Position numbers and translations under genes: made by a program
DNA from: Escherichia phage JM17
Strand: one strand, 5' to 3'
DNA length: 64,000 nt
Sequence record: PP400779
Shown here: positions 6,904 to 28,732 of the stretch, piece by piece
How positions within the stretch are numbered: position 1 is the stretch's first letter
How the letters are laid out: each line of letters starts with the position of its first letter
Notes under the pieces: generated by a model
What the model saw: only the letters and a program-made list of their open reading frames with translations
Databases searched by the model: none
Told to the model about the DNA's origin: nothing

Positions 6904-7320
6904 ATGTTTACTACTGTTAAAGGTTTCACTGCTGCTGATCTGAAAGTTACTTCTATCCGTACTGACGCTAACCCACATAACCATAATCGTGTTCGTAAAG
7001 CATGGGTCCTGCATTGTGATGAAGCAAGTGCTAAAAAACTCCAATCTTTGCCACAAGAAACTCGTTTTATGATTTATGGTTTTATTGATAACGATGTATC
7101 TGATATGTGGATTCATCTGATGCGTAAGCACTATAAAGATTCTATCGAAGCAGGTGCTAAAATCGTTCTTGATAAAGACGGTTCTGAGCGTCTGGAAGAT
7201 TTCTACTGTGTTGATGCCGACGAACAACTAATTGCAGCTGGCGAAATTGTTGCTTCTAAAATTCCAGAATATATTGAATCACTGCCTGAAGCTATTAAAA
7301 AGCAGATGGTTGCTGCTTGA
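6904..7320 (+). CDS. rpbA: RNA polymerase-binding protein RpbA-like (138 aa)
   Basis: size and position immediately upstream of the gene 45 region as in T4; sequence only weakly recognised. Confidence 0.5.
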   Translation: MFTTVKGFTAADLKVTSIRTDANPHNHNRVRKAWVLHCDEASAKKLQSLPQETRFMIYGFIDNDVSDMWIHLMRKHYKDSIEAGAKIVLDKDGSERLEDFYCVDADEQLIAAGEIVASKIPEYIESLPEAIKKQMVAA

Positions 7321-7325
7321 TAATT

Positions 7326-7850
7326 ATGAATTTAATATATCTTATAACCTTTTATAATCGTGAGATTAAAAATGAATACCCGTGTTATTATATAGGTTCT
7401 AAAGTTTCGTGTCATTTTAATGGAAAGGATATTATTGAAGATTCTACCGGTAAAATATATACCGGTAGTGTTAATTCCTCGTATTCTCCTTTATATAACA
7501 GATTAATAGACCAAGGCGAATATTCTGTAAAAATTTTAGGCGAAACCACATTAGACCCTAGAAGAATAGAAAGACTATTCCAACTCAATGTTAAAGCCGT
7601 TTCAAATGAAAAATATTTTAATAAGGCTTATGCTAACGAGAAGTCTAGAATATCAGCTAAAGGATATGCACCGTATAAAAATTTAAAAACAGGCAAAATA
7701 GTAAAACTTTCTAAAAACGAAATAAACGAAGATTACGTCGGTGTTAGAAAAAATTGCAAATTGTCGGAGAATCATTTAAACGCAATTAGAGAATTTCAAA
7801 AAAACATATTGGACCAAAGAACGAAGAGAGAAAGTTTCTATTCGTTCTAA
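7326..7850 (+). CDS. GIY-YIG homing endonuclease, N-terminal catalytic part (seg-like)
   Basis: IYLITFYNREIKNEYPCYYIGSK matches GIY-(x10)-YIG; AT-rich codon usage unlike flanking genes. Confidence 0.55.
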   Translation: MNLIYLITFYNREIKNEYPCYYIGSKVSCHFNGKDIIEDSTGKIYTGSVNSSYSPLYNRLIDQGEYSVKILGETTLDPRRIERLFQLNVKAVSNEKYFNKAYANEKSRISAKGYAPYKNLKTGKIVKLSKNEINEDYVGVRKNCKLSENHLNAIREFQKNILDQRTKRESFYSF

Positions 7851-10955: not shown

Positions 10956-13667
10956 ATGAAAGAATTTTACTTAACGGTTGAACAGATTGGTGATTCAATT
11001 TTTGAACGTTACATCGATTCTAATGGCCGTGAACGTACTCGTGAAGTAGAATATAAACCATCACTGTTTGCTCATTGTCCAGAAAGTCAGGCTACGAAAT
11101 ATTTCGATATCTACGGTAAGCCGTGTACTCGTAAGTTGTTCGCTAATATGCGTGATGCCTCCCAATGGATTAAACGCATGGAAGATATCGGACTTGAAGC
11201 ACTTGGCATGGACGATTTCAAATTGGCGTATTTGTCTGACACTTATAACTATGAAATCAAATACGACCATACAAAAATTCGTGTGGCTAACTTCGACATC
11301 GAAGTAACATCTCCGGATGGGTTCCCTGAGCCATCACAAGCAAAACATCCGATTGATGCTATCACCCATTATGACTCAATTGACGACAGGTTCTACGTAT
11401 TTGATCTATTGAATTCTCCATATGGTAATGTAGAAGAATGGTCTATTGAAATCGCTGCTAAGCTTCAAGAACAAGGCGGTGATGAAGTTCCATCTGAAAT
11501 TATCGATAAAATCATTTATATGCCGTTCGATAACGAAAAAGAATTGTTGATGGAATATCTCAACTTCTGGCAACAGAAAACTCCTGTCATTTTGACTGGA
11601 TGGAACGTTGAGTCATTCGATATTCCATATGTGTATAACCGAATCAAGAATATTTTTGGCGAATCTACTGCGAAACGTTTATCACCACATCGTAAAACTC
11701 GTGTTAAAGTTATCGAAAACATGTATGGTTCTCGTGAAATCATTACATTGTTCGGTATCTCTGTTCTTGATTACATTGACCTTTACAAAAAATTCTCTTT
11801 TACCAATCAACCGTCGTATTCTCTGGATTACATTTCAGAATTTGAATTGAACGTTGGTAAACTGAAATATGATGGCCCTATTTCTAAGCTTCGTGAAAGC
11901 AATCACCAACGATATATTTCTTATAACATTATCGACGTGTATCGTGTATTGCAAATTGATGCTAAGCGTCAGTTCATCAACTTGAGCTTGGACATGGGTT
12001 ATTATGCTAAGATACAGATTCAATCTGTGTTTAGCCCAATTAAAACATGGGATGCTATTATTTTTAATAGCCTTAAAGAGCAGAACAAGGTGATTCCACA
12101 AGGTCGTTCTCACCCGGTTCAACCTTATCCCGGCGCTTTTGTTAAGGAACCTATTCCAAATCGATACAAATATGTAATGAGTTTCGACCTTACATCTCTG
12201 TATCCAAGTATTATTCGCCAAGTGAATATTAGCCCGGAAACAATAGCAGGAACGTTTAAAGTAGCTCCATTGCATGATTATATTAACGCAATCGCTGAAC
12301 GTCCTTCAGATGTGTACAGTTGCTCTCCTAACGGCATGATGTATTATAAAGACCGTGATGGTGTAGTTCCAACTGAAATCACTAAGGTCTTTAATCAACG
12401 TAAAGAACATAAAGGTTACATGCTTGCAGCTCAACGTAATGGTGAAATAATTAAAGAGGCATTGCATAATCCTAATCTTTCTGTTGACGAACCATTAGAT
12501 GTTGATTATCGTTTCGACTTCAGTGATGAGATTAAAGAAAAGATTAAAAAGTTGTCTGCTAAATCTCTTAATGAAATGTTGTTTAGAGCTCAACGTACTG
12601 AAGTTGCAGGTATGACCGCACAAATTAACCGTAAATTGCTCATCAACTCACTTTATGGTGCACTTGGAAACGTTTGGTTCCGTTATTATGATTTGCGTAA
12701 TGCTACTGCAATCACAACATTCGGGCAAATGGCTTTACAGTGGATTGAACGTAAAGTTAATGAATATCTGAATGAAGTTTGTGGTACAGAAGGTGAAGCT
12801 TTCGTTCTTTATGGTGATACGGACTCTATTTACGTATCTGCTGATAAAATTATCGATAAGGTTGGTGAATCTAAATTCCGTGATACTAACCATTGGGTAG
12901 ACTTCTTAGATAAGTTTGCACGTGAACGTATGGAACCTGCTATTGATAGAGGTTTCCGTGAAATGTGCGAATACATGAACAATAAACAACACTTAATGTT
13001 CATGGACCGAGAAGCTATCGCTGGGCCTCCGCTTGGTTCTAAAGGTATTGGCGGATTTTGGACTGGTAAGAAACGTTATGCATTAAACGTGTGGGATATG
13101 GAAGGTACTCGTTACGCTGAGCCTAAACTCAAAATCATGGGTCTAGAAACTCAGAAATCTTCGACCCCTAAAGCAGTACAGAAAGCTCTTAAAGAATGTA
13201 TTCGTCGTATGCTTCAAGAAGGTGAAGAATCATTACAAGAATATTTTAAAGAGTTTGAAAAAGAATTCCGTCAATTGAATTATATTAGCATCGCGTCGGT
13301 ATCTTCTGCGAATAACATTGCTAAATATGACGTCGGTGGATTCCCTGGTCCTAAATGCCCGTTCCATATTCGTGGAATTCTGACATATAACCGAGCTATC
13401 AAAGGTAATATCGATGCACCACAAGTTGTAGAAGGTGAAAAAGTATATGTTCTGCCTTTACGTGAAGGAAACCCATTCGGTGATAAATGTATCGCATGGC
13501 CTTCTGGTACTGAAATCACAGATTTAATTAAAGACGATGTACTTCATTGGATGGACTACACTGTTCTCCTTGAGAAGACATTTATTAAACCACTTGAAGG
13601 ATTCACATCAGCAGCGAAACTCGATTATGAGAAGAAAGCATCTCTGTTCGATATGTTCGATTTTTGA
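10956..13667 (+). CDS. 43: DNA polymerase gp43 (family B), RB69-type
   Basis: 903 aa; N-terminus MKEFYLTVEQIGDSIFERYIDSNGRERTREVEYKPSLFAHCPESQ and exo/pol motifs (FDIE, YGDTDS) match remembered RB69 gp43. Confidence 0.97.
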   Translation: MKEFYLTVEQIGDSIFERYIDSNGRERTREVEYKPSLFAHCPESQATKYFDIYGKPCTRKLFANMRDASQWIKRMEDIGLEALGMDDFKLAYLSDTYNYEIKYDHTKIRVANFDIEVTSPDGFPEPSQAKHPIDAITHYDSIDDRFYVFDLLNSPYGNVEEWSIEIAAKLQEQGGDEVPSEIIDKIIYMPFDNEKELLMEYLNFWQQKTPVILTGWNVESFDIPYVYNRIKNIFGESTAKRLSPHRKTRVKVIENMYGSREIITLFGISVLDYIDLYKKFSFTNQPSYSLDYISEFELNVGKLKYDGPISKLRESNHQRYISYNIIDVYRVLQIDAKRQFINLSLDMGYYAKIQIQSVFSPIKTWDAIIFNSLKEQNKVIPQGRSHPVQPYPGAFVKEPIPNRYKYVMSFDLTSLYPSIIRQVNISPETIAGTFKVAPLHDYINAIAERPSDVYSCSPNGMMYYKDRDGVVPTEITKVFNQRKEHKGYMLAAQRNGEIIKEALHNPNLSVDEPLDVDYRFDFSDEIKEKIKKLSAKSLNEMLFRAQRTEVAGMTAQINRKLLINSLYGALGNVWFRYYDLRNATAITTFGQMALQWIERKVNEYLNEVCGTEGEAFVLYGDTDSIYVSADKIIDKVGESKFRDTNHWVDFLDKFARERMEPAIDRGFREMCEYMNNKQHLMFMDREAIAGPPLGSKGIGGFWTGKKRYALNVWDMEGTRYAEPKLKIMGLETQKSSTPKAVQKALKECIRRMLQEGEESLQEYFKEFEKEFRQLNYISIASVSSANNIAKYDVGGFPGPKCPFHIRGILTYNRAIKGNIDAPQVVEGEKVYVLPLREGNPFGDKCIAWPSGTEITDLIKDDVLHWMDYTVLLEKTFIKPLEGFTSAAKLDYEKKASLFDMFDF

Positions 13668-14343: not shown

Positions 14344-14483
14344 AAGCAATAACAATAGGACTTTTACTATTGATGCTTGTCATGACTATCTACTGGAGCT
14401 TAACGGCTCCGGTAATGATTCCAACACTTGTAATTGGATGGATTATGATTGGACTACAAGCAAAGTATGAATGCTTTAACTAG
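14340..14483 (+). CDS. small hydrophobic protein (47 aa, two predicted TM segments)
   Basis: ATG overlaps upstream stop (ATGA); below ORF-track cutoff; lies where T4 has imm. Confidence 0.3.
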   Translation: MKAITIGLLLLMLVMTIYWSLTAPVMIPTLVIGWIMIGLQAKYECFN

Positions 14484-14524
14484 AATAGTGTACAATACTC
14501 CTACTTACCAATGAGGACTTTAAC

Positions 14525-16210
14525 ATGAAAAAAGCTGTTATTCTTGGTGCTGGACTGGCAACTCGTTTGTATCCAATAACGCATCATATTCCTAAGGTGC
14601 TTGTTAACTATAAACAAGATACTATTCTGAGCAATTTGTATACAATTTATTCTGACCTTGGCGCAGATGAAATTATTGTAGTAGTTCATTCAAAATTTGC
14701 TGAAACTGTTCGAGCTTATTGTGAACAAGAAGGGTTCAATGTGACTATTCGTACAGTTGATGAAGCGTATGGTTCTGCTTATGCTCTTGCTAAATTACAC
14801 AAAGATTTAGACGGCCATAATGTAATTGTTAACTGGTGTGATATTATTCCTGATTTTGGTTCATGGTCTTGGAATGTTAACGCAATCTATGTTAAGGGTG
14901 ACGAATGTCGATATAATTTCGACGGTGAAAATATCACTAACGTAGGTTCAACAGGTGGTAATGTTGTAGGAATTTATCAGTTCAAAGACTGGGAATTCTA
15001 TATGGGTTCTACTGATGAGGAAATTCATGAATACTGCAAAGGACGTGATTTCGTAGAATTCCTTTACGGCAGCGCATTCAATAAATCAGAGCTTATGAAT
15101 CTAATTGATTTAGGTGATATGCCTAAACTTGAAAAAGCTCATGAAGTTCGTGAACTTAATCGTAGTTTTAATGCAGTTGAAATTGGTGAAGAAACTGTAA
15201 CTAAATTCGCATTAACCGAACAGGGTCGAGCTCTTCAGAAAGATGAGATTTCGTGGTATCTTAAAGTGAAATCAGATTCAGTTCCTCAGTTAGTTTCTGT
15301 TAATGAAAATAACTTTGAAATGGAACGCATTAAAGGTAAGCCTGCATTTGAATATATTAAATCCAAATCAAGTCTTGCTCGTCCACAAATTGTTGATGCA
15401 ATTTTAGATGCACTGAAATTCAGCACAGACACTTATTTTGTAAGTCCTGAAACTGTTCGTCGTGATTTCACTAAAGAATTCTATACGAAAGTTATTGATC
15501 GTTGTGAAAGCATTCAACCATTGATTGATTCATTTGGTAAAATCACACATGTGAACTACACTAAGATTGGACGTCTGAAGCCAATGCTGAAACAAGCTTT
15601 AGAACACCTCATTCGTTATCATAACCGTTCTCAGGGACAGTACTCTGTTATTCACGGTGACCCGAACTTCAGTAATACTATGATTACTGATAATGGCGAA
15701 GTCAAGTTTATCGACCCTCGTGGATATTTTGGTGAAACCAAGATTTACGGGCCAAAATTGTACGATGAAGCTAAAGTGCTTTACGCTGTTTCAGGTTATG
15801 ATGAATTCAATGCTAATCCGACTTGGGGACAGTTTACTATTGATGAAACAACTTGTAATGTGACTATTAACATCAATCCATTAGTTTACAAATATGGAAA
15901 GATGAGTTCGTTTAACGAGTATCATCATTTGGCAGTGGCAATTATCTGGATTGCATTAGGTGGTTATTTCAAGAATAATCCACTTAAAGCGGTAGCCGCA
16001 TATTATAAAGGTATGGAACTTCTGACTAAGCAATTACGTAACATGGGCCGTGTACTTCAGGACGGCTCTATTAGTTATGACGTAGCAGAACCTGTAACGG
16101 CTACTCTGATTACAAAAAATCCTGGTAAATGGGTACTAACTGATAAAGAAACTGGTGTTTCCTATCGTCCAATCGGTGGCGATATCACTCATCAATGGGA
16201 ACGAATTTGA
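14525..16210 (+). CDS. bifunctional sugar-1-phosphate nucleotidyltransferase / APH-fold sugar kinase
   Basis: 561 aa; N-term AVILGAGLATRLYPIT...PKVLV (NTP-transferase G-loop); C-term VIHGDPNFSN...FIDPRG (Brenner HGDxxxxN and DxxG kinase motifs). Confidence 0.7.
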   Translation: MKKAVILGAGLATRLYPITHHIPKVLVNYKQDTILSNLYTIYSDLGADEIIVVVHSKFAETVRAYCEQEGFNVTIRTVDEAYGSAYALAKLHKDLDGHNVIVNWCDIIPDFGSWSWNVNAIYVKGDECRYNFDGENITNVGSTGGNVVGIYQFKDWEFYMGSTDEEIHEYCKGRDFVEFLYGSAFNKSELMNLIDLGDMPKLEKAHEVRELNRSFNAVEIGEETVTKFALTEQGRALQKDEISWYLKVKSDSVPQLVSVNENNFEMERIKGKPAFEYIKSKSSLARPQIVDAILDALKFSTDTYFVSPETVRRDFTKEFYTKVIDRCESIQPLIDSFGKITHVNYTKIGRLKPMLKQALEHLIRYHNRSQGQYSVIHGDPNFSNTMITDNGEVKFIDPRGYFGETKIYGPKLYDEAKVLYAVSGYDEFNANPTWGQFTIDETTCNVTININPLVYKYGKMSSFNEYHHLAVAIIWIALGGYFKNNPLKAVAAYYKGMELLTKQLRNMGRVLQDGSISYDVAEPVTATLITKNPGKWVLTDKETGVSYRPIGGDITHQWERI

Positions 16211-16956
16211 TACATTATCTCTACAAAACTACTAATCTTATAAACGGTAAAGTTTATTTAGGAATGCACTCGGCTGAAGAAGCCGAGCCTTTAGATTTAT
16301 ATAAAGGTTCTGGTAAATTATATAAAAAGGCTGAAAGGAAATATGGGAAGGAAAATTTTCTTAAAGAAATCATTTCCTACCATAGCTCAAGAGAAGAATT
16401 AAAAATAGCTGAAAAGGCTCTAATAACATTAGACATAGTTAAAGACCCAAATTATTACAATCTTAAAACTGGTGGCGAAGGTGGTTCTGACGGGTTATCC
16501 CAAAGGTCCAAGGATAAAATTTCTAAGGCAAATAAAGGACGTTTAGTTGGTGATAAAAACCCAAGATGGGGTAAAACTTTGTCAGCTGAATCTATAGCTA
16601 GGGGTAAAGAAAAGCACAGGAGGTATGGTAAACCTGCATTACATGGTCTAAAGATTAATGTAGATGGCAAATATTATGAATCCTGTCGGGAAGCGGCTAA
16701 AGATTTAGGTATATCTTCTGCCACGATTCAAAAGAGAGTAAAATCGCCTAAATATCTTAATTATCGGTATCAGGACGAAAGCAAAAATGCTCACAAGTCT
16801 CAAAAATTTGTTAAAATAAACGAAAATTACTATGAATCTCTTAGGATAGCTGAAAAGAAAACGGGTATTCCTAGAAAGCGTATAGCTGATAATATTAAAA
16901 ATTCTATTGAAGGATATTGCTATGAAACCATTACATCTTTGCGTGGACGTCGATGA
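16195..16956 (+). CDS. GIY-YIG homing endonuclease (freestanding, seg-like)
   Basis: 253 aa; HYLYKTTNLINGKVYLGMH = GIY-YIG module; AT-rich codons; overlaps both flanking genes. Confidence 0.7.
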   Translation: MGTNLIHYLYKTTNLINGKVYLGMHSAEEAEPLDLYKGSGKLYKKAERKYGKENFLKEIISYHSSREELKIAEKALITLDIVKDPNYYNLKTGGEGGSDGLSQRSKDKISKANKGRLVGDKNPRWGKTLSAESIARGKEKHRRYGKPALHGLKINVDGKYYESCREAAKDLGISSATIQKRVKSPKYLNYRYQDESKNAHKSQKFVKINENYYESLRIAEKKTGIPRKRIADNIKNSIEGYCYETITSLRGRR

Positions 16957-17296
16957 TTGTATAACAGAGTGGAATAACAATCGTGATTACGTGAACTTCA
17001 AACCAGACGTCGAAATGGTGTCTGCCATTAATGCCCTGTATGATGCAGGGCATACAATAACGCTTTACACTGCTCGAGGTATGAAGTCAGTAGGTCCTGG
17101 TCGTATAGCAATTGACATTCTCCCAAGTCTGATTCAGAACTTGGCAAACATTGGCTTGAAGTACCATAATTTGCTAACACATAAACCAGTATATGATTGG
17201 ATTATCGACGACAAAGCTATGCGTCCTGACGAATTCAAAGCTCTTATGAATAAAGGCGAATTCGAAACATTTAAATCATATAAACCGAATCTATAA
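16922..17296 (+). CDS. HAD-like phosphatase (candidate sugar-phosphate phosphatase)
   Basis: 124 aa from ATG 16922; N-terminal hhhhDxDx motif-like LCVDVDDCIT; small size typical of capless HAD. Confidence 0.45.
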   Translation: MKPLHLCVDVDDCITEWNNNRDYVNFKPDVEMVSAINALYDAGHTITLYTARGMKSVGPGRIAIDILPSLIQNLANIGLKYHNLLTHKPVYDWIIDDKAMRPDEFKALMNKGEFETFKSYKPNL

Positions 17297-17353
17297 TAAT
17301 TTAAGTAAGACCTGCAAAAACCATCGCATCAATTAACGTGAGATGCAAAAAAA

Positions 17354-18514
17354 ATGAATACTTTTAAAATTGGAACGAATTTTGATTTAGCTCTTCTTGA
17401 TAAAATCGTAGAGCTCAATAAAACTTATCCTAATAGCTTGATAAACGAAGTATACGGCTCTACAAGAGAAATGGCTTTTGTAGCAGCCAGACCTGATTTT
17501 AGGCTTCCTGACGTTGACAAAAAGATGTTAGAAGATTACGTTAAACGTTGTAACGAATTAGGTATTTGCTTTAACTATACACTCAACACGATAAATCCTG
17601 GTTCAAAAAGAGAACTAGTTGAGTGGAAGAAGAAAGCTATTCAGGATTATGTTCAGTATCTTTGGTCAATAGGCGTATGGCGTATTACTATCGCTAACCC
17701 TGTTGTTATGGAAATTGTTCGTGAAGTCAATAAAGACATTGAGATTGAAGTTTCAACAATTCTACATGTCGATGCTGTAACTCAAATCAAATACTTGCAT
17801 GACCAGTATAATATCAAAAAGGTCTGCTGTGGAATTCATAAGAACCGTTCAGTTTCTTTCCTGAAGCGTGCAGCAGAGTTTTGCAATAAGAACAATATAA
17901 TATTTGAAGTTCTTGTAAATGAGTTCTGTTCTAATGCCGGTAAAGGGTATACAACACATTGTAGCTATCGTGACTCTTGCTATATTTTCCATAGTACTGA
18001 TGTTACAGCTGATGATGCTAAATCCTTAAACGGATATCCTATGCAGCACTGTATTAAAGCTCGTGATACAGACCCATTTAACTGGTTGAGAACTCGTTTT
18101 GTTCGTCCTCAAGATTTGAAACTTTATAATGATATTGGTATCACTCAATTCAAAGTTTCAGGACGTACAGGTAGCACAGACTACATTTTGAAAGTTCTTG
18201 AAGCATACGCTTCTGAAAAGTTTGAAGGTAATTTGTTAGAACTGTGGAAGCCTTTAGAGACTATTTTCACTCTTGAAAATGAGACCGAGTTTTCACATAC
18301 GGTAAATATTGAAACCTCTTTGTTAGATGGCTTTTTAGAAAAAAGGTGGTTCAGACATCCAGATTTCGATTGTGCTAATGAGATCTGCGGGACGACGTGT
18401 ACATATTGTGAAAGATATTATAAACGTCAGTTATCTAAAAATGGGTTAGCAGAAAACTCTATATCTATTATTGATATAACTAACTCTGATGACGCTTTGA
18501 GGTACCCGGAATGA
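17354..18514 (+). CDS. peptidase-U32-family-like protein (PrtC/RlhA/UbiU-like fold), function unknown
   Basis: 386 aa; IGTNFD...VYGS...CFNYTLNT...IEIEVSTILHV...FEVLVNEFCSNAGKGYTTHCSYRDSCYIFHS resembles U32 core incl. Cys cluster; extra CxxxCxxxCxxC near C-terminus. Confidence 0.45.
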   Translation: MNTFKIGTNFDLALLDKIVELNKTYPNSLINEVYGSTREMAFVAARPDFRLPDVDKKMLEDYVKRCNELGICFNYTLNTINPGSKRELVEWKKKAIQDYVQYLWSIGVWRITIANPVVMEIVREVNKDIEIEVSTILHVDAVTQIKYLHDQYNIKKVCCGIHKNRSVSFLKRAAEFCNKNNIIFEVLVNEFCSNAGKGYTTHCSYRDSCYIFHSTDVTADDAKSLNGYPMQHCIKARDTDPFNWLRTRFVRPQDLKLYNDIGITQFKVSGRTGSTDYILKVLEAYASEKFEGNLLELWKPLETIFTLENETEFSHTVNIETSLLDGFLEKRWFRHPDFDCANEICGTTCTYCERYYKRQLSKNGLAENSISIIDITNSDDALRYPE

Positions 18515-18750
18515 TTTCTAGAAAAACTTTTAATCACCAACTTAATGAAGAGATTTTGACTACGAAACTGAACACTAACGAACAAATTCTTAAAAAGGCC
18601 CTTATGGGCCTGTTTGAAACCAAAGCGGCTAAAGTGATTAAAGGACCTGTTCAATTAGAATATTACGCTGATACATTTCTTCATAGTGTTCTTGGAAGTA
18701 TCGATGCTGAAGCTTTACGTTATATCAACATTGCCAAGAAATTCAAATAA
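18511..18750 (+). CDS. hypothetical protein (79 aa)
   Basis: ORF overlapping upstream stop; contains internal hairpin aggccc-ttat-gggcct (18597-18612). Confidence 0.3.
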   Translation: MISRKTFNHQLNEEILTTKLNTNEQILKKALMGLFETKAAKVIKGPVQLEYYADTFLHSVLGSIDAEALRYINIAKKFK

Positions 18751-18792
18751 GCTTTACGAATTGAGTATATAATAAATTGTATTGAGGTAAAC

Positions 18793-19509
18793 ATGGGAAA
18801 ACATAACACAATGAAATATATCAAAGCCGCAGATTTTCAAACCGCATTTAAAGCAGTCAATCGTGAAATTTTAGAAAACCCGGAATTCGTAACTGATTCT
18901 CGTATTGGACGTTGTAATGAAATTGGGTCTATGACAGTAGTTGTTGACACTCCATCATCATTCAAAATGACTGACCCACGTATTAACCGCATCTCTTATG
19001 AATATGCCGAAGACTTCTGGAAGTTTATGATTTCTGGTGGTACCAACGCAGAAGAAGCGTTTAAGGCATATCCTAATGTCGCTAAATTTATTTCTAAACC
19101 AAAATCAGATGTTTTGCCGGCGAACTTCAATACTTTCTATGGTCCTCGCATTGCGGCCCAATTACCAGCTCTTCTAAAAGAACTTAAAGAGAAGCCTAAC
19201 TCTCGAAGAGTTGTGTTCCAAATTCTAGAAAGTTCTGATCAGGCTTTGCTTGATTCGGATGAAACGCTTGAATATCCATGTACTGACTCAGTGACTTATT
19301 ATATTCGTGATGGTAAGCTTTATACCCACTGTCATATGCGTTCTCAGAACTGTGCTGTTGTTATGCAGTTGGATTTTTATCTCCAAGGAAAATTACTTCA
19401 TTATATCGCTAACGAATGCGGTGTAGAAGTTGGTGATTATACTCATACCATGGTAAGTGCCCATGTGTTTGAACGTGATTTTGATTATGTTAAAGGATTC
19501 CTTGACTAA
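18793..19509 (+). CDS. 42: dCMP hydroxymethylase gp42 (thymidylate-synthase fold)
   Basis: 238 aa; TS-family core (NSRRVVFQI, PCTDSVTYYIRDGKLY..MRSQN....LD...GV.VGDY) with Asp at the base-specificity position; synteny 43..42..uvsX. Confidence 0.75.
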   Translation: MGKHNTMKYIKAADFQTAFKAVNREILENPEFVTDSRIGRCNEIGSMTVVVDTPSSFKMTDPRINRISYEYAEDFWKFMISGGTNAEEAFKAYPNVAKFISKPKSDVLPANFNTFYGPRIAAQLPALLKELKEKPNSRRVVFQILESSDQALLDSDETLEYPCTDSVTYYIRDGKLYTHCHMRSQNCAVVMQLDFYLQGKLLHYIANECGVEVGDYTHTMVSAHVFERDFDYVKGFLD

Positions 19510-22572: not shown

Positions 22573-24015
22573 GTGGTAGAAATTATTTTGTCTCATCTCG
22601 TATATGACCAGGCTTATTTTTCTAAGGTCTGGCCTTATATGGATTCTGAGTATTTTGAGCGTGGACCGGCAAAAAATGTCTTTAAAATTATAAAGAGCCA
22701 TGTTAACGAATATAATGCAATGCCATCTATCAATGCGTTAAAGGTGGCTTTAGATAACAGTTCTTTAACTGAAGCCGAATATAAAGGAACTTCAGACCTA
22801 ATTGAAAAATTGGCTGATACTCCTGAAGACCATGAATGGTTGGTTAAAGAAACTGAGAAATATGTCCAGCAAAAAGCGATGTATAATGCTACGTCCAAAA
22901 TCATTGAGATTCAGTCTAATGCTGAACTACCTCCAGAACAACGTAACAAGAAAATGCCTGACGTAGGAGCTATTCCTGATATTATGCGTCAAGCACTTTC
23001 AATTTCGTTCGATAGTTATGTTGGACATGACTGGATGGAAGACTACGAAGCACGCTGGCTTTCTTATCTAAATAAAGCACGTAAGGTCCCGTTCAAATTA
23101 AACATTTTGAATAAAATAACCAAAGGCGGTGCAGAAACAGGTACACTAAACGTTTTAATGGCTGGTGTTAACGTCGGTAAATCTTTAGGCCTTTGTTCAC
23201 TTGCTGCAGATTATCTTCAAACAGGTCATAACGTTCTTTATATTTCTATGGAAATGGCTGAAGAAGTTTGCGCTAAGCGTATAGATGCAAACATGCTTGA
23301 CGTATCACTTGATGATATCGATGATGGTAACGTATCTTATGCTGAATATAAAGCCAAGATGGAAAAATGGCGTTCAAAAACAACATTAGGACGTTTAGTA
23401 GTTAAACAGTATCCTACTGGTGGAGCTAATGCTAATACATTTCGTGCATTGCTTAATGAGTTAAAACTTAAGAAGAACTTTGTGCCATCTGTAATCATGG
23501 TTGATTACTTAGGTATTTGTGGGTCTTGTCGTATCAGAGTTTACACTGAAAATAGCTACACATTAGTTAAAGCTATCGCAGAAGAACTTCGTGCATTAGC
23601 AGTAGAATCTGAAACAGTTCTATGGACTGCAGCTCAAGTGGGACGTGCAGCATGGGATGCTTCAGACATGAACATGAGTGATATCGCAGAATCAGCAGGT
23701 TTACCAGCAACGGCAGATTTCATGTTGGCTGTAATTGAAACCGAAGAACTTGCACAAGCTGAACAACAACTTATCAAACAAATCAAATCACGATACGGCG
23801 ATAAGAATAAGTGGAATAAATTCCTGATGGGTGTACGTAAAGGCAATCAGAAATGGGTTGAGATTGAGCAAGAAGGCATGAACACACCTAACACAGTAAA
23901 TGAAAACGCAGGTGCTCAGATGCGTCAGGCAGAGGTGAATCGTACGGAACGCGTAGGTAAAGCCAAAGCAACACGTGCTGACCTAGATAGCTTAGCCAAT
24001 GAGTTAAAATTTTAA
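22573..24015 (+). CDS. 41: replicative DNA helicase gp41 (DnaB-like)
   Basis: 480 aa, GTG start; MVEIILSHL..., Walker A GVNVGKSLG; close to remembered T4 gp41. Confidence 0.9.
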   Translation: MVEIILSHLVYDQAYFSKVWPYMDSEYFERGPAKNVFKIIKSHVNEYNAMPSINALKVALDNSSLTEAEYKGTSDLIEKLADTPEDHEWLVKETEKYVQQKAMYNATSKIIEIQSNAELPPEQRNKKMPDVGAIPDIMRQALSISFDSYVGHDWMEDYEARWLSYLNKARKVPFKLNILNKITKGGAETGTLNVLMAGVNVGKSLGLCSLAADYLQTGHNVLYISMEMAEEVCAKRIDANMLDVSLDDIDDGNVSYAEYKAKMEKWRSKTTLGRLVVKQYPTGGANANTFRALLNELKLKKNFVPSVIMVDYLGICGSCRIRVYTENSYTLVKAIAEELRALAVESETVLWTAAQVGRAAWDASDMNMSDIAESAGLPATADFMLAVIETEELAQAEQQLIKQIKSRYGDKNKWNKFLMGVRKGNQKWVEIEQEGMNTPNTVNENAGAQMRQAEVNRTERVGKAKATRADLDSLANELKF

Positions 24016-24020
24016 TAAAA

Positions 24021-24041
24021 AGGAGACTTCGGTCTCCTTTC
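24021..24041 (+). terminator. UUCG-tetraloop hairpin after gene 41
   Basis: aggagac-ttcg-gtctcct then ttcgggg (weak U-tract). Confidence 0.45.
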
Positions 24042-24044
24042 GGG

Positions 24045-24074
24045 GTTTACATCTTCCTCTAGGCATGATATGAT
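24045..24074 (+). promoter_or_regulatory. early-type promoter
   Basis: gtttac 24045-24050, spacer about 18, tatgat. Confidence 0.45.
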
Positions 24075-24103: not shown

Positions 24104-24478
24104 ATGAATATGTCTCAAGCAATTTTTACTGCAATCACCGAAAACACAACTGTTGAAGTAGTTTCTCCGCTGGCAACCTACGTTATTCTTGCTCCTAAAA
24201 CTATTGTATCTCGTATGGAAAACATGGGCAAACGTATCGTACAAATTGTTGGAGCTGGAAATCAAAAACTTGATTATCTACGAACCATCAAAGCTTATGA
24301 ACATTTCCAACTCGAAAAAGGTTCTCCTATCCAGGTAGAACTCGTAAATGGTGATATCGTTCGAGCAATGTTCCATCATTTCTATGCATTGAATGACCCA
24401 TCTAAAGCGGTTCGTTTAATTGCATATGACGCAAACCAAAACGAAATCAACGCAGATGTATCTAAATTACGTTTTTAA
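24104..24478 (+). CDS. hypothetical protein (124 aa)
   Basis: ORF with aagaggaaaacattATG RBS context downstream of early promoter. Confidence 0.4.
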   Translation: MNMSQAIFTAITENTTVEVVSPLATYVILAPKTIVSRMENMGKRIVQIVGAGNQKLDYLRTIKAYEHFQLEKGSPIQVELVNGDIVRAMFHHFYALNDPSKAVRLIAYDANQNEINADVSKLRF

Positions 24479-24507
24479 GTTTACTTCTCCAGTAGTTGTG
24501 TTATTAT
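24479..24507 (+). promoter_or_regulatory. early-type promoter
   Basis: gtttac 24479-24484, 17-nt spacer, tattat 24502-24507. Confidence 0.45.
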
Positions 24508-24533
24508 AGATCTATCAACTACCGGAGAACAAA

Positions 24534-24851
24534 ATGAAAACCATCGATTGTAAAGCAGAATTTAAGATTTTTTATCATGGTTCAAGTAGTTCAGCTAACA
24601 TCGAAAACATGCTTTGTCCTCCTGAAGAAACAGGAGTTCTGTCTGAAACTGGACGTAAGAAAAACTTGGATCGTGTATTCTTTACTGAAGATATCGGTTT
24701 AGCAAAGATTTATGCAGGACGAGCAGCACGCTCTTATGGAGGTGAACCACGTCTCTATCGAGTAATTTCTCCGGTAGATGTAGTTCAAATGAATGATACT
24801 AAAGGTGCTACAGTTTATCACGCTGAATGGGCATTTTGCGAGGAAATATGA
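24534..24851 (+). CDS. hypothetical protein (105 aa)
   Basis: ORF with ggagaacaaaATG RBS; contains YHGSS...Y...E pattern (weak ART-like hint). Confidence 0.4.
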   Translation: MKTIDCKAEFKIFYHGSSSSANIENMLCPPEETGVLSETGRKKNLDRVFFTEDIGLAKIYAGRAARSYGGEPRLYRVISPVDVVQMNDTKGATVYHAEWAFCEEI

Positions 24852-25036
24852 GCAAATTAACTAAAGTTACTTTTATCGGTTGGTTTAAAAGCGGTGAGAT
24901 GTTCACTAAAGATATCATGTTATCAGGTGATCGCGAAGAAATCGAGTGGGTTACGGTACAACTTGCTGAAGTGAACAACGCATTAGTTAAAGCATTTGTT
25001 AATGACGAGAAAGTTTTCGAAGCAGATTTTCGATAA
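24848..25036 (+). CDS. hypothetical protein (62 aa)
   Basis: ATG 24848 with gaggaaat RBS, overlapping upstream stop. Confidence 0.35.
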   Translation: MSKLTKVTFIGWFKSGEMFTKDIMLSGDREEIEWVTVQLAEVNNALVKAFVNDEKVFEADFR

Positions 25037-25049
25037 TTTTAAAATAACT

Positions 25050-25079
25050 GTTTACAAGCCCCACATACTGTGTTACTAT
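25050..25079 (+). promoter_or_regulatory. early-type promoter
   Basis: gtttac 25050-25055, spacer 18, tgttactat extended -10. Confidence 0.45.
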
Positions 25080-25107
25080 CTTTCTATCAACTACAGAGGA
25101 AATTGAA

Positions 25108-25476
25108 ATGAAAAAATTAATCGCTTTAGCAATGGTATTTGGATTAACCGGATGTGGTGCTCATGGCTTTATCCCTAATAACGTCGGCCAACTGATTTAC
25201 AATCCGAATGTTAAACAATATGAACAACCTAAAGTTGAAGTGGAAGACCCGGTTACTGTAGGTAATCGAATGATTCAAGCTGATGCCCATGCTCAACGTT
25301 ATCGTGACTCTGATACCGTAGCATTGTCAAAAGAACAACGCGTTAAAGAACATTGTCTACAGGCTACTGAAATCGCATTCATTCGCTATGTTGAAACAAC
25401 TGGTAAAGAGCCTACCCAGAAACAAATCGCGAATAACTACGTCCAGTGTATTGAACGTTTAAACAAATTTAATTAA
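25108..25476 (+). CDS. predicted lipoprotein (122 aa)
   Basis: signal peptide MKKLIALAMVFGLTGC with lipobox LTGC. Confidence 0.5.
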   Translation: MKKLIALAMVFGLTGCGAHGFIPNNVGQLIYNPNVKQYEQPKVEVEDPVTVGNRMIQADAHAQRYRDSDTVALSKEQRVKEHCLQATEIAFIRYVETTGKEPTQKQIANNYVQCIERLNKFN

Positions 25477-25479
25477 TTG

Positions 25480-25509
25480 GTTTACACCAAAGTTAAAACA
25501 AGATACTAT
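25480..25509 (+). promoter_or_regulatory. early-type promoter
   Basis: gtttac 25480-25485, spacer 18, tactat (gatactata context). Confidence 0.45.
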
Positions 25510-25537
25510 AAACATAACAAATCAAGAGGAAATTAAC

Positions 25538-25786
25538 ATGGAATTATTCGTAGCTAGTTCAGTAGCAGTTTTAATCGCAGGTATTGGTTCAATCATCATT
25601 TACATGTTGCCTTGGGTAATAGCACTTATTCGTGGCACAAAAAGCACAACAGCAATCTTCTTTGTATCTTTACTCTTTAACTGGACGATGATTGGTTGGA
25701 TTGGAACTTTAATTTGGTCTATCGTTGCCGAAAAGAAATCTGCTCAGCAGCCTCAACAAGTAATTATTATTCGCGAAAAAGAATAA
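25538..25786 (+). CDS. small membrane protein (82 aa, two TM segments)
   Basis: hydrophobic stretches AVLIAGIGSIIIYMLPWVIALI and FFVSLLFNWTMIGWIGTLIWSIV. Confidence 0.45.
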   Translation: MELFVASSVAVLIAGIGSIIIYMLPWVIALIRGTKSTTAIFFVSLLFNWTMIGWIGTLIWSIVAEKKSAQQPQQVIIIREKE

Positions 25787-25790
25787 ACTT

Positions 25791-25822
25791 GTTTACATTA
25801 TAGATGGACTATAGTAGTCCTA
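25791..25822 (+). promoter_or_regulatory. promoter/stem-loop cassette (GTTTAC + ggacta-tag-tagtcc hairpin)
   Basis: gtttac 25791-25796; tatagtagtcct module shared with 45849-45860 and 46361-46372. Confidence 0.35.
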
Positions 25823-25844
25823 TCAAATCAACTAAGGAGTTAAA

Positions 25845-26138
25845 ATGAAAAAGTTATCATTGGCAGCAATCTTACTTGCAGTATCATGTGCACCGTCTCC
25901 AGTTACGGCAGGTTATGATAAAGACCTCTGTGAGTGGTCAATGACTGCAAATCAAGAAGATGTTGAACAACAAATCTTCTCTGATATCATGAACATCACT
26001 AAACGAGACCGTCCTAATATGGTTAATAAAGTTGTTGAACAACTTAAGTCTGGCGGTATCATGCAGTACAATTATGTTTTGTATTGTGACCCTAATTTCG
26101 ATAACAAAGATATCGTAACCGAAATCACAGGTGAATAA
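25845..26138 (+). CDS. predicted lipoprotein (97 aa)
   Basis: MKKLSLAAILLAVSC signal peptide with lipobox. Confidence 0.45.
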   Translation: MKKLSLAAILLAVSCAPSPVTAGYDKDLCEWSMTANQEDVEQQIFSDIMNITKRDRPNMVNKVVEQLKSGGIMQYNYVLYCDPNFDNKDIVTEITGE

Positions 26139-26139
26139 T

Positions 26140-26790
26140 ATGATTTATTATATGCACAAAAATGCGCCATTTAAATATGGTAAATTTCCTAATGCACAAT
26201 GTTATAATATAACGCCGAATGAAAATAATAACGGATACCATCTCGGTGTAATTTTTGTAATTGTTAAAGATAACGAAATCGTTGCCTGGGCAGATTTTAA
26301 AGGTACAACATATGATGTTAATCCTGTGCCTTTCACATATTACAATATAATGGATTTGGCATATGATTATAATTGGTTTACTCATGACACGTTGGCTCAT
26401 ATTGAAGGTGTAGGATTTGACATCTCTTATTCTAGCTATTCATTATGTCCTATGAGCCGATCTCACGGTAAAGATGTATCATATCTTTCAATTCGGAAAC
26501 GTGTAAACTTCAAACGTAGTACAGAGTATGTTGGTGGACTCTTTGTTAAAGATAATAAAATAACCCGTATTAGTTATCCTTTAAGTGTAGGTCAAAAAGA
26601 TGTTGATGTTGATTTAGACTTAACTGAAAGTAACATTAATCGTATTGCTTCTGTATATTTTGATATCGATGAAAAAATTGTAGTGTGTGGATACGAATTA
26701 CCACCTGAAGAAAAGGCTGAAACAATTGAAGTCGAATTAGAAATTTCTGTTGATGACCAAATATTTAACGCATTTATGAATCGAGGTTAA
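26140..26790 (+). CDS. hypothetical protein (216 aa), AT-rich foreign-looking gene
   Basis: ATG 26140; markedly AT-rich codon usage versus neighbours. Confidence 0.4.
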   Translation: MIYYMHKNAPFKYGKFPNAQCYNITPNENNNGYHLGVIFVIVKDNEIVAWADFKGTTYDVNPVPFTYYNIMDLAYDYNWFTHDTLAHIEGVGFDISYSSYSLCPMSRSHGKDVSYLSIRKRVNFKRSTEYVGGLFVKDNKITRISYPLSVGQKDVDVDLDLTESNINRIASVYFDIDEKIVVCGYELPPEEKAETIEVELEISVDDQIFNAFMNRG

Positions 26791-26791
26791 A

Positions 26792-26989
26792 ATGACTACT
26801 GCAATTTGCACTGGTTCTAAAATTAGTGTTTTTACAAGTTTTGAAGATTATGAAGTTGTTTCAAAACACCAATGCCATATTAGCGTAAAAGCTAATGATG
26901 GTGTAATTTGGAATATTCCACACTATGAAGACACTACATATGAAGTCACAGATGCGAACGGTGATAAAGCGATCTTTGTGATTGATTAA
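26792..26989 (+). CDS. hypothetical protein (65 aa)
   Basis: ORF starting 2 nt after upstream stop. Confidence 0.3.
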   Translation: MTTAICTGSKISVFTSFEDYEVVSKHQCHISVKANDGVIWNIPHYEDTTYEVTDANGDKAIFVID

Positions 26990-27008
26990 ATATACTCAGG
27001 AGGTACCT

Positions 27009-27476
27009 ATGGGTATTATTAACACTGCAATAGATTCTGTTTATGCATATAAGTTTATTCGACTAATGCAAAAACCTTTTACCGAATGGAAAGCATACGA
27101 AGCCAAAATCATCGATGAACGTGGAAGTGTTCTTAAACGTCCTTCTACTCCAGAAGAGAAAGCGGCTTATACACCTTTTCATGCTTCAGTTCGTTCAATG
27201 AAGCGAATGATGAGCACTGTTCCAGGTCTTAATGGAATGGCCTCAATGATGTCTGCCTGGAGTGCTGTAGCTTCACGCTATAACATTACAGAAGAACAAC
27301 AGAAAGAAATATTTAAAGAACTCCCTTTATTTGAGGATATGGTTGCTGGTGATTCAGGTGGCAGCCCTCAAGCTATTGCATCAGGAACAACTACAGGTGC
27401 AGTCGTAAATAAAGGCCCCGAACAAATTCCTTCCAAGAAAAGAAAGCGAATTAAAGTAAATATTAATAAGTTGTGA
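27009..27476 (+). CDS. hypothetical protein (155 aa)
   Basis: ATG 27009 with caggaggtacct RBS. Confidence 0.4.
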   Translation: MGIINTAIDSVYAYKFIRLMQKPFTEWKAYEAKIIDERGSVLKRPSTPEEKAAYTPFHASVRSMKRMMSTVPGLNGMASMMSAWSAVASRYNITEEQQKEIFKELPLFEDMVAGDSGGSPQAIASGTTTGAVVNKGPEQIPSKKRKRIKVNINKL

Positions 27477-27515
27477 TAAGATGGCCTTATTAATTTAAGG
27501 CCTCTGGAGAATACT

Positions 27516-28538
27516 ATGGCTGAATGGATAGATAATGAATTTGCTTATCGTGCGTTTTCTCACCTACCTCGTTTTAGACAAATCAATAATTCAAGCACAT
27601 TTAAATTAACATTTCGATGTCCAGTTTGTGGCGACTCCCAGACAGATGCAATGAAAGCTCGCGGATGGTATTACGGTGGTACTCCTGGTAATGTACATTG
27701 CTATAACTGTCAATACCACAATACAATTTCCGGATACTTAAAAGAGTACGATGAAGAGCTTTATCGCGAATATCTAATGGAAGTTCGTAAAGAAAAAGCT
27801 AGAATGGAACCAAAGATTGAAAAGGTTCCTGAAGCTAAGCCGGAGCCAGAGAAAAAGACTATAAATTCTTTGCCGTCTTGTTCTCGTCTGGACAAGTTGC
27901 CTGAAGAGCATCCTATTGTGAAATATGTTAAGTCTCGGTGTATTCCTAAAGAATCATGGAACAGATTATGGTTCACATTAGAATGGCCCAAATTGGTCAA
28001 CAAGATTCAACCTGGTACGTATAAGAAAGAGATTCCCGAACCACGTTTAGTGATTCCTATTTTTAATAAAGACGGGAAGGCCGAGTCATTCCAAGGACGT
28101 GCACTTCGTAAAGATGCTCCTCAGAAATATATCACTATTAAAGCATTTGAGTCTGCAACAAAAATTTATGGTGTTGAACGTGTTAAGGAAGGAGACGTCT
28201 GGGTAATGGAAGGCCCTATTGATAGTTTATTCATACCCAATGCAATCGCTATTACAGGCGGCTCAATAGATTTAGATGTGGTACCATTTAAAGAACGTCG
28301 GGTATGGGTAATGGATAATGAACCTAGGCATCCGGATACTATAGCTCGCATGAAGCGATTAGTTGATGCAGGCGAACGTGTCATGTTCTGGGACCGAGCT
28401 CCATGGAGTTCAAAGGATGTGAATGATATGGTAATGAAAGAAAATGCAACACCACAAGAAATTTTAGAATATATGAAACAGAATATTTCAAGTGGGTTGC
28501 ATGCTAAAATGAGATTATCTCGTTATTCGAAGATTTAA
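27516..28538 (+). CDS. 61: DNA primase gp61
   Basis: 340 aa; N-terminal zinc ribbon CPVCGDS...HCYNCQYH; Toprim-like core; position after 41. Confidence 0.85.
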   Translation: MAEWIDNEFAYRAFSHLPRFRQINNSSTFKLTFRCPVCGDSQTDAMKARGWYYGGTPGNVHCYNCQYHNTISGYLKEYDEELYREYLMEVRKEKARMEPKIEKVPEAKPEPEKKTINSLPSCSRLDKLPEEHPIVKYVKSRCIPKESWNRLWFTLEWPKLVNKIQPGTYKKEIPEPRLVIPIFNKDGKAESFQGRALRKDAPQKYITIKAFESATKIYGVERVKEGDVWVMEGPIDSLFIPNAIAITGGSIDLDVVPFKERRVWVMDNEPRHPDTIARMKRLVDAGERVMFWDRAPWSSKDVNDMVMKENATPQEILEYMKQNISSGLHAKMRLSRYSKI

Positions 28539-28732
28539 ACCAGACCTATAATAGCAAAGGCCAAATCAACTACAGTATCCAATGGAACAGAAGGAACTAT
28601 AATACCATGGGCAACTAACAATGGTGCAATCCCGAAGTTCCATGAAATAATGCCACCTACAACTATTGCAGCGATAGCAGTTTTCTTTTTATTGCCTTTA
28701 ATAGCGTTGATTAACGATGGAAGTTTAAACAT
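28535..28732 (-). CDS. small membrane protein (65 aa) encoded antisense to the early array
   Basis: minus-strand ORF with aaggag RBS 6 nt before ATG; two hydrophobic segments. Confidence 0.45.
   Translation of the reverse strand: MFKLPSLINAIKGNKKKTAIAAIVVGGIISWNFGIAPLLVAHGIIVPSVPLDTVVDLAFAIIGLV

Follow-up and report, generated by a model that had tools for sequence, protein, structure and literature searches.

T-even phages carry a variable block of early genes between gene 41, which encodes the replicative helicase, and gene 61, which encodes the primase. In T4, the order is 41-dmd-61.4-sp-61.2-61.1-61. Early promoters lie upstream of dmd and sp, dmd forms an early operon with 61.4 (tifA), and Dmd inhibits RnlA while TifA is a ToxN inhibitor (PMC9391042). 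The sp (61.3) product, Spackle, is exported and allosterically inhibits the gp5 lysozyme (PMC7650644), and AdfA, the product of 61.2, was discovered in RB69 as an anti-DarT1 factor (PMC11257639). For the hyperplastic regions of T4-type genomes, the concept of the promoter-early/stem-loop (PeSL) cassette has been put forward (PMC2839356, PMC4122927). Here, we describe the interval between genes 41 and 61 (positions 24104 to 27476) in Escherichia phage JM17 (sequence record PP400779), of which a stretch of 64,000 nucleotides (nt), hereafter the window, was analyzed. We read this interval, with a probability of roughly 90%, as the form that the variable early-gene block takes in Mosigvirus (RB69-type) phages.

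Nine open reading frames (ORFs), all on the plus strand and head to tail, fill the interval; the features given below are also on the plus strand unless stated otherwise. On the left they are flanked by gene 41 (22573-24015; 86% identity with T4 gp41 and annotated in relatives) and on the right by gene 61 (27516-28538; 74% identity with T4 gp61). Directly after gene 61, on the minus strand, lies a 65-residue hydrophobic ORF (28535-28732; RB69ORF029w in RB69), a small predicted membrane protein. With ORF starts refined using the RB69 and O157tp3 annotations, the nine ORFs occupy about 92% of the 3373 nt, and each has a GAGG/GGAG-type ribosome-binding site 5 to 10 nt upstream. All nine match PHROG families across their full length. 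The PHROGs agree with the Pfam assignments, all five of which (Dmd, DUF5481/Imm.1, Imm, Spackle, and AdfA) exceed the gathering scores. No ORF gave a significant NCBIfam match, and no Rfam RNA family was found in the region. The number and positions of small ORFs that an initial annotation, made from the letters alone, had placed between the helicase and primase genes stand.

A 3.6-kb stretch spanning the block aligns over its full length, at 98 to 99% identity, with about 150 Mosigvirus genomes, FL18, JK45, O157 typing phage 3, and mobillu among them, and at 97.6% identity with RB69, the full-length values for RB69 and its relatives ranging from 97.6 to 98.9%; on this similarity, the phage is a Mosigvirus of the RB69 type. 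In RB69 (NC_004928), the block reads RB69ORF041c, ORF040c, dmd, 61.4, imm.1, imm, sp, 61.2, ORF033c, ORF032c plus 61.1, and 61. The window has the same genes in the same order and on the same strand, with proteins 95 to 99% identical and an arginine at AdfA position 164 in both, but it lacks 61.4/tifA (a 207-bp indel) and carries an intact ORF9. The core genes on either side are also those of T4, and dmd, sp, 61.2, and the 61.1 motif are arranged relative to each other as in T4. T4, in turn, has no ORF1, ORF2, or ORF8 and carries imm.1-imm between genes 43 and 42; its gp61.1 consists of the 54-residue C-terminal motif only, tifA is present, and AdfA is of the H164 type (PMC11257639). Since order and orientation are the same in T4, the block is the syntenic counterpart of the long-known T4 region. 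The cluster is already known and annotated, and the mechanisms of dmd, imm, sp, and adfA are published.

Early promoters, hairpins, and leader repeats

When the window was scanned on both strands with a composite T4 early-promoter pattern (GTTTACW-N15-18-TAnnnT), 16 sites were found on the plus strand and 1 on the minus strand. Four of the 16 fall in intergenic gaps of the 3.4-kb region, where about 0.8 would be expected under an even spread. They lie upstream of ORF1 (24045-24074; GTTTACA, 17-nt spacer, TATGAT), upstream of ORF2 (24479-24507; GTTTACT, 16-nt spacer, TATTAT, with an upstream TG), ahead of the imm.1-imm cassette (25050-25079; GTTTACA, 17-nt spacer, TACTAT, also aligning with T4), and upstream of imm (25480-25509; GTTTACA, 17-nt spacer, TACTAT). 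All four agree with the published T4-type early-promoter consensus, TTTACW-N17-TAYWAT (PMC4122927). At the level of sequence, the initial description of the region as promoter-rich, with several ORFs under their own early promoter, is thus borne out. It is the strand, the position, and the paired -10 box that make this signal meaningful, because a plain count of GTTTACW on both strands did not rise above chance (28 versus 26); a generic sigma-70 scan was weakly above shuffled sequences (24 sites versus 16.4 +/- 4.1). Right after infection, the host sigma-70 RNA polymerase would start at the four promoters and read rightward, and the small proteins would be made within the first minutes, as the promoter consensus suggests.

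A fifth element, a GTTTACA -35 box upstream of sp (25791-25797), has no correctly spaced -10 box: the sole -10-like hexamer is 12 nt away, and by alignment the element resembles the T4 dmd promoter minus 5 nt. It is probably a weakened or relic promoter, and sp is therefore probably read from the imm promoter.

The gene 41 end of the block also recalls the PeSL arrangement. A GC-rich hairpin follows gene 41 (24019-24040; free energy -12.8 kcal/mol, z -2.95), and together with the promoter of TTTACW-N17-TAYWAT type next to it, it appears to form a terminator-plus-early-promoter cassette of the PeSL kind. As in PeSL regions, promoter and leader segments are repeated between small variable ORFs, and modules appear to be gained and lost at such sites. 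Unlike in PeSL cassettes, the stem-loop is confined to the first gap; the other gaps hold a promoter alone, right after the preceding stop codon. A 33-nt direct repeat of 79% identity (24497-24529 and 25069-25101) takes in the promoter -10 box, the leader, and the ribosome-binding site ahead of both ORF2 and imm.1, a possible recombination substrate of the sort envisaged in the PeSL model. At the other end of the block, a hairpin after the ORF9 stop and just 5' of the gene 61 ribosome-binding site (27479-27505; -13.6 kcal/mol, z -2.1) could attenuate read-through or stabilize the upstream mRNA. A terminator-like site inside ORF2 (24619-24636) was dropped, as it folded no better than shuffled sequences (z -0.85).

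Counter-defense and exclusion genes

Four of the nine ORFs, namely, those for Dmd, Imm, Spackle, and AdfA, belong to experimentally characterized families of exclusion or anti-defense proteins, so that the general functional reading proposed at the outset was right. The accompanying claim that the functions are lineage-specific did not hold: T4 has dmd, sp, adfA, and the 61.1 motif in the same order, ORF2 turns up in 609 records of phages that infect many different genera, and only ORF1 is restricted to the genus.

The dmd (61.5) gene (24848-25036) encodes an antitoxin-like inhibitor of RnlA/LsoA. Its product, about 60 residues long, matches Pfam Dmd (PF17587; 72.2 bits against a cutoff of 27, E value [E] 4.5e-20) and the Protein Data Bank (PDB) entries 5i8j (E 2.5e-37) and 5hy3 (E 4.6e-17), and it is 55% identical to T4 Dmd; as in T4, the gene lies a short way downstream of gene 41. 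By homology with the T4 protein, the window Dmd would bind and block the RnlA/LsoA endoribonuclease toxins.

Downstream of dmd, tifA is missing. Relative to mar005P1, the difference is a clean 207-bp indel that begins at the dmd stop codon and ends shortly ahead of the imm.1 promoter (junction 25036-25050). RB69-type TifA is found in 69 phage records, versus 132 records with the Mosigvirus-specific ORF1; about half of the genus therefore lacks tifA. The gene occupies this position in T4 as well, which makes loss more likely than gain, and we infer that this phage lost it. Gene content would change by recombination at the repeated promoter/leader cassettes, and tifA may have been lost in this way. 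The loss predicts that the phage is more sensitive to ToxIN than RB69 (PMC9391042).

The imm.1 gene (25108-25476) encodes a 122-residue predicted lipoprotein and is annotated imm.1 in RB69. It matches DUF5481 (PF17578) with 38.2 bits against a cutoff of 27 and T4 Imm.1 at 33% identity (BLASTP, E 7e-19), and it lies directly upstream of imm in both RB69 and T4. An assignment of this ORF as a 61.4/TifA homolog was ruled out by the same BLASTP comparison, in which 61.4 scored E 2.5. After a hydrophobic N terminus, Imm.1 has a canonical lipobox (MKKLIALAMVFG-LTGC, residues 13-16, lipobox cysteine Cys16), where T4 Imm.1 has LAGC. A relative with 47% identity carries a signal peptidase I-type signal (LAGF..AHA↓S) in place of the lipobox, suggesting that the family is exported but that lipidation is not universal. 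The window protein would be exported and probably lipid anchored. A PDB sequence search with Imm.1 gave no significant match.

The neighboring imm gene (25538-25786) encodes the superinfection immunity protein of the inner membrane (Pfam Imm_superinfect, PF14373; 57.2 bits against a cutoff of 27.9, E 1.5e-15), with 65% identity to T4 Imm. Its hydropathy profile contains two hydrophobic segments, at about residues 1-34 and 40-59, and this is the two-transmembrane protein that had been picked out from the letters. T4 Imm blocks DNA entry by superinfecting phage, as recorded in textbooks and in a note to the T4 record. The window Imm would likewise sit in the inner membrane and stop DNA entry of superinfecting T-even phages. 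Because imm.1 and its promoter move together with imm as a cassette, Imm.1 would seem to take part in the same exclusion at the envelope. In T4, the pair lies between genes 43 and 42; at that place Mosigvirus has sugar-modification genes. Despite the different genome location, the imm.1 promoter and leader of the window (25037-25107) align with those of T4 (11515-11697 in the T4 locus compared), and the cassette therefore appears to have moved as a unit with its promoter. At 14400-18800 of the window, by correspondence with positions 14442-18783 of locus L005, there are sugar-nucleotide genes (arabinose-5-phosphate isomerase, GlmU-like, and phosphoheptose isomerase) where T4 has imm.1-imm and the beta-glucosyltransferase. 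They fit the known arabinosyl-hydroxymethylcytosine DNA modification of RB69-like phages.

The next gene, sp (61.3; 25845-26138), encodes Spackle, the periplasmic inhibitor of the gp5 tail lysozyme. The window protein matches T4_Spackle (PF25676) with 144 bits over residues 1-96 (E 2.1e-42) and PDB entries 6x6o (E 1e-39) and 7cn6, and it is 66% identical to T4 Sp. The N-terminal export signal is present, as are the conserved Cys29 and Cys81 of the mature part; the mature N terminus (GYDKDLCEW) and the V-T-A↓G cleavage site are the same as in T4. Carried over from T4 gp61.3 by homology, the function of the protein would be to inhibit gp5 lysozyme allosterically after export to the periplasm.

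The initial annotation had counted two lipoproteins in this region. Both motifs are present (LTGC in Imm.1 and, after a hydrophobic N terminus, AVSC at Spackle residues 12-15), and Imm.1 is the only straightforward candidate. N-terminal sequencing of periplasmic T4 Spackle begins at residue 23, with residues 1-22 removed, which indicates processing by signal peptidase I (PMC7650644). On this evidence the label of lipoprotein is not warranted for Spackle, and the signal peptide of the window protein most probably comprises residues 1-22; a P-x-x-A↓[GN] site at 22/23 is kept in all 17 distinct Spackle sequences compared. In the same 17 sequences, which come from several genera, a [LVA][AVS]SC motif ending at Cys15 is invariant while the surrounding signal-peptide residues vary. 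The cleavage at 22/23 reported for T4 does not explain this conservation (25845-25910). According to a second, smaller reading, the invariance of Cys15 would mean that part of Spackle is lipid anchored.

The adfA gene (61.2; 26140-26790) encodes anti-DarT factor A. Its product matches Pfam AdfA (PF23813) with 390 bits over residues 4-219 (E 2e-117), is 64% identical to T4 61.2 and identical to RB69 AdfA at 205 of 212 residues, and is syntenic with both. Given a fitting allele, AdfA would bind the DarT1 DNA ADP-ribosyltransferase toxin. The wild-type R164 form of RB69 does not bind DarT1, whereas the R164H and T4-type alleles do (PMC11257639). The window protein has Arg164, as in wild-type RB69, and thus not the His164 associated with neutralization of E. 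coli DarT1. Because the R164 allele fails against E. coli DarT1, the DarT that the window AdfA counters is presumably a different variant. The protein departs from RB69 AdfA at 7 of 212 residues, while the other proteins of the block differ at 1 to 3 residues each (1 or 2 in its neighbors), a pattern consistent with faster evolution of a counter-defense protein.

ORF2, a predicted Arr-like ADP-ribosyltransferase fold

ORF2 (24534-24851; RB69ORF040c, 105 residues) is the one part of the region that appears to go beyond the literature we found, and it is otherwise unstudied. Its stop codon overlaps the dmd start (ATGA). The 609 records come from T4-like phages of Escherichia, Klebsiella, Acinetobacter, Aeromonas, and Vibrio, mostly at 62 to 100% identity; judged by hit counts, ORF2 appears to be absent from T4-type (Tequatrovirus) genomes. 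In Aeromonas phage 44RR2.8t the gene lies elsewhere, and in Gaprivervirus VR25 it again adjoins dmd. An alignment of 36 diverse members contains 25 invariant positions, including H15 (within FYHGS), F49, Y60, and E103.

The AlphaFold2 model built from the family alignment has a predicted local distance difference test (pLDDT) score of 85. Its top Foldseek match in the PDB is Arr (9iaf; probability 0.99, E 0.044, template modeling score 0.59), followed by pertussis-like toxin A subunits. Against the viral models of BFVD, the model matches a phage protein annotated as "Ms Rifampin ADP-ribosyl transferase" (E 2e-8, 37% identity) and also polyvalent proteins bearing an ADP-ribosyltransferase (ART) domain, Tpt1, and PARP proteins. 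An hhalign comparison with Arr (P 9e-4) pairs H15 with Arr H19, the E-x-G-R motif with its Arr counterpart, and F49 with Tyr49. Three of the 36 family members weakly touch Arr-ms (PF12120; best E 0.026), while the window ORF2 gives no match to PF12120 at the gathering score. A PDB sequence search with ORF2 and a profile search with its alignment both returned nothing significant. A few GenBank records already name ORF2 relatives "ADP-ribosyl transferase." Our literature searches found no paper on this family, on the RB69 ORFs by name, or on enzymes of the Arr type in T4-like phages. The only viruses for which a survey of viral NAD+/ADP-ribose systems records enzymes of the Arr family are actinophages and one phage of Sinorhizobium (PMC9503650).

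With Arr (PF12120; PDB 2hw2 and 9iaf), its best structural match, ORF2 shares the motifs F-Y-H-G-[ST], L-x-P, E-x-G-R, and [YF]-[IF]-T and the helix that follows. Unlike Arr, it is about 40 residues shorter, ending where the Arr helical domain starts and thus lacking the C-terminal rifampicin-binding helices; it has Phe for Tyr49, scores below the Pfam threshold, and occurs only in T4-like phages. The predicted model thus has the ART fold and the catalytic histidine of the H-Y-[E/D] triad. The tyrosine, a clear acidic residue, and a rifampicin-binding domain were not found: an invariant Phe49 stands at Arr Tyr49, and the Asp84 equivalent is ambiguous. On the model, ORF2 resembles Arr in its ART fold without belonging to the Arr family proper.

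What such a protein would do can be read in two ways. Translationally coupled to dmd, the Arr-like core would most likely use NAD+ to modify a small molecule or a target in the host, and we tentatively propose, at less than even odds, that ORF2 is an active minimal ADP-ribosyltransferase of 96 to 105 residues, made early and modifying a conserved host target or small molecule for host takeover or counter-defense. It is somewhat unlikely that the ART-like fold is instead a binder without enzymatic activity, for example, one that binds NAD+ or ADP-ribose or acts as a decoy inhibitor of a host factor. Such a binder would suit a protein of this length that has no counterpart to the C-terminal substrate-binding helical domain of Arr, an invariant Phe at Arr Tyr49, no confident equivalent of Asp84, and, for the window ORF2, no Pfam ART match. 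Phenylalanine, however, can still stack on nicotinamide, and His15 in HG[ST], the E-x-G-R loop common with Arr, and Glu103 are strictly conserved in the 36 diverse members, as is usual where an active site has been retained. Alt, ModA, and ModB are the well-known ADP-ribosyltransferases of T4-like phages. If ORF2 is indeed an enzyme, it would be a fourth, unrelated, Arr-like one, as conserved as the replication genes, and it may have been overlooked because it is missing from T4.

A probably old variable block with exchanged modules

The remaining ORFs bear on whether the whole block is coding. ORF1 (24104-24478; RB69ORF041c, 124 residues, phrog_10668) is restricted to Mosigvirus: it falls in only two clusters among 5.8 billion proteins and is found in 134 phage records, of which 132 share at least 95% identity with it, so that by its distribution it is a genus-level ORFan. 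A PDB sequence search gave no significant match. ORF8 (26792-26989; RB69ORF033c, 65 residues, phrog_3249) occurs in 265 phage records. ORF9 (27009-27476; 155 residues) is a long form of gp61.1: its last 48 residues are 69% identical to T4 gp61.1, and its family comprises 1095 representative clusters. The AlphaFold2 model (pLDDT 79) has a confident helical N-terminal domain, followed by an MVAGDSGG...IASG.TSG motif and a basic tail; no fold match was found for it in the PDB and no Pfam domains in longer ORF9 relatives. In the RB69 reference (1318-1784 in the RB69 locus compared), a 1-nt deletion splits this ORF into ORF032c and gp61.1, while the window and most relatives have the intact 155-residue ORF. 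ORF1, ORF8, and ORF9 would be expressed accessory proteins. It is very improbable that the nine include spurious frames, open by chance in an AT-rich spacer, even though ORF1 is nearly without relatives, ORF8 has only 65 residues, and neither has a Pfam match. ORF1 keeps its length and frame in relatives at 52% and 36% identity, ORF8 is kept down to 32% identity across its records, and all nine ORFs combine ribosome-binding sites, tight spacing or overlaps, a single strand, and full-length PHROG matches.

We consider it improbable, too, that horizontal transfer recently brought the cluster in as a foreign island, or moron cluster. In favor of such an origin, matches beyond Mosigvirus cover no more than parts of the region, both ORF2 and the imm.1-imm cassette occupy other positions in other phages, and adfA has a G+C content of 31.8%, against 37.4 +/- 2.3% for 651-nt windows, which places it in the lowest 1.3%. 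The initial annotation had called this gene strongly AT-rich and apparently acquired. It is indeed AT-rich, if moderately so, but the acquisition did not stand: the gene is syntenic with T4 61.2, which at 32.9% G+C is as AT-rich as its own surroundings (33.7%), and its divergence is like that of its neighbor sp, identity to T4 being uniform across the two (66% for sp). The sequence thus offers no evidence for a recent acquisition of adfA. The eight other ORFs have 33 to 39% G+C, near the window mean, and between the same two core genes T4 and the window share the order of the dmd-sp-61.2-61.1 backbone. These comparisons argue for a variable block of long standing, whose modules have been exchanged among T4-like phages, rather than for a recent import from outside. 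Elsewhere in the window, the lowest G+C (28 to 31%) is found at 7150-7800, which by correspondence with O157tp3 lies inside the gene 46 (SbcC-like) region.

Several points weigh against reading the region as the Mosigvirus form of a functional early block of this kind. The protein functions are transferred from orthologs that are 55 to 66% identical in T4 or 97 to 99% identical in RB69. The four T4-type early promoters are predictions from consensus matches, and the fifth, upstream of sp, looks defective. For Imm.1, our literature search found no published function, and the assignment of ORF2 relies on a predicted structure with a weak PDB E value (0.044), a Phe in place of the canonical Tyr, and no Pfam match. 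Finally, deletion of adfA in T4 gave no DarTG1 phenotype (PMC11257639).

Read as the Mosigvirus version of the T-even block, the interval between genes 41 and 61 is a compact example of how counter-defense genes (anti-RnlA/LsoA and anti-DarT) may be stacked beside self-protection genes (Imm and Spackle), under multiple predicted early promoters and with modules gained and lost.

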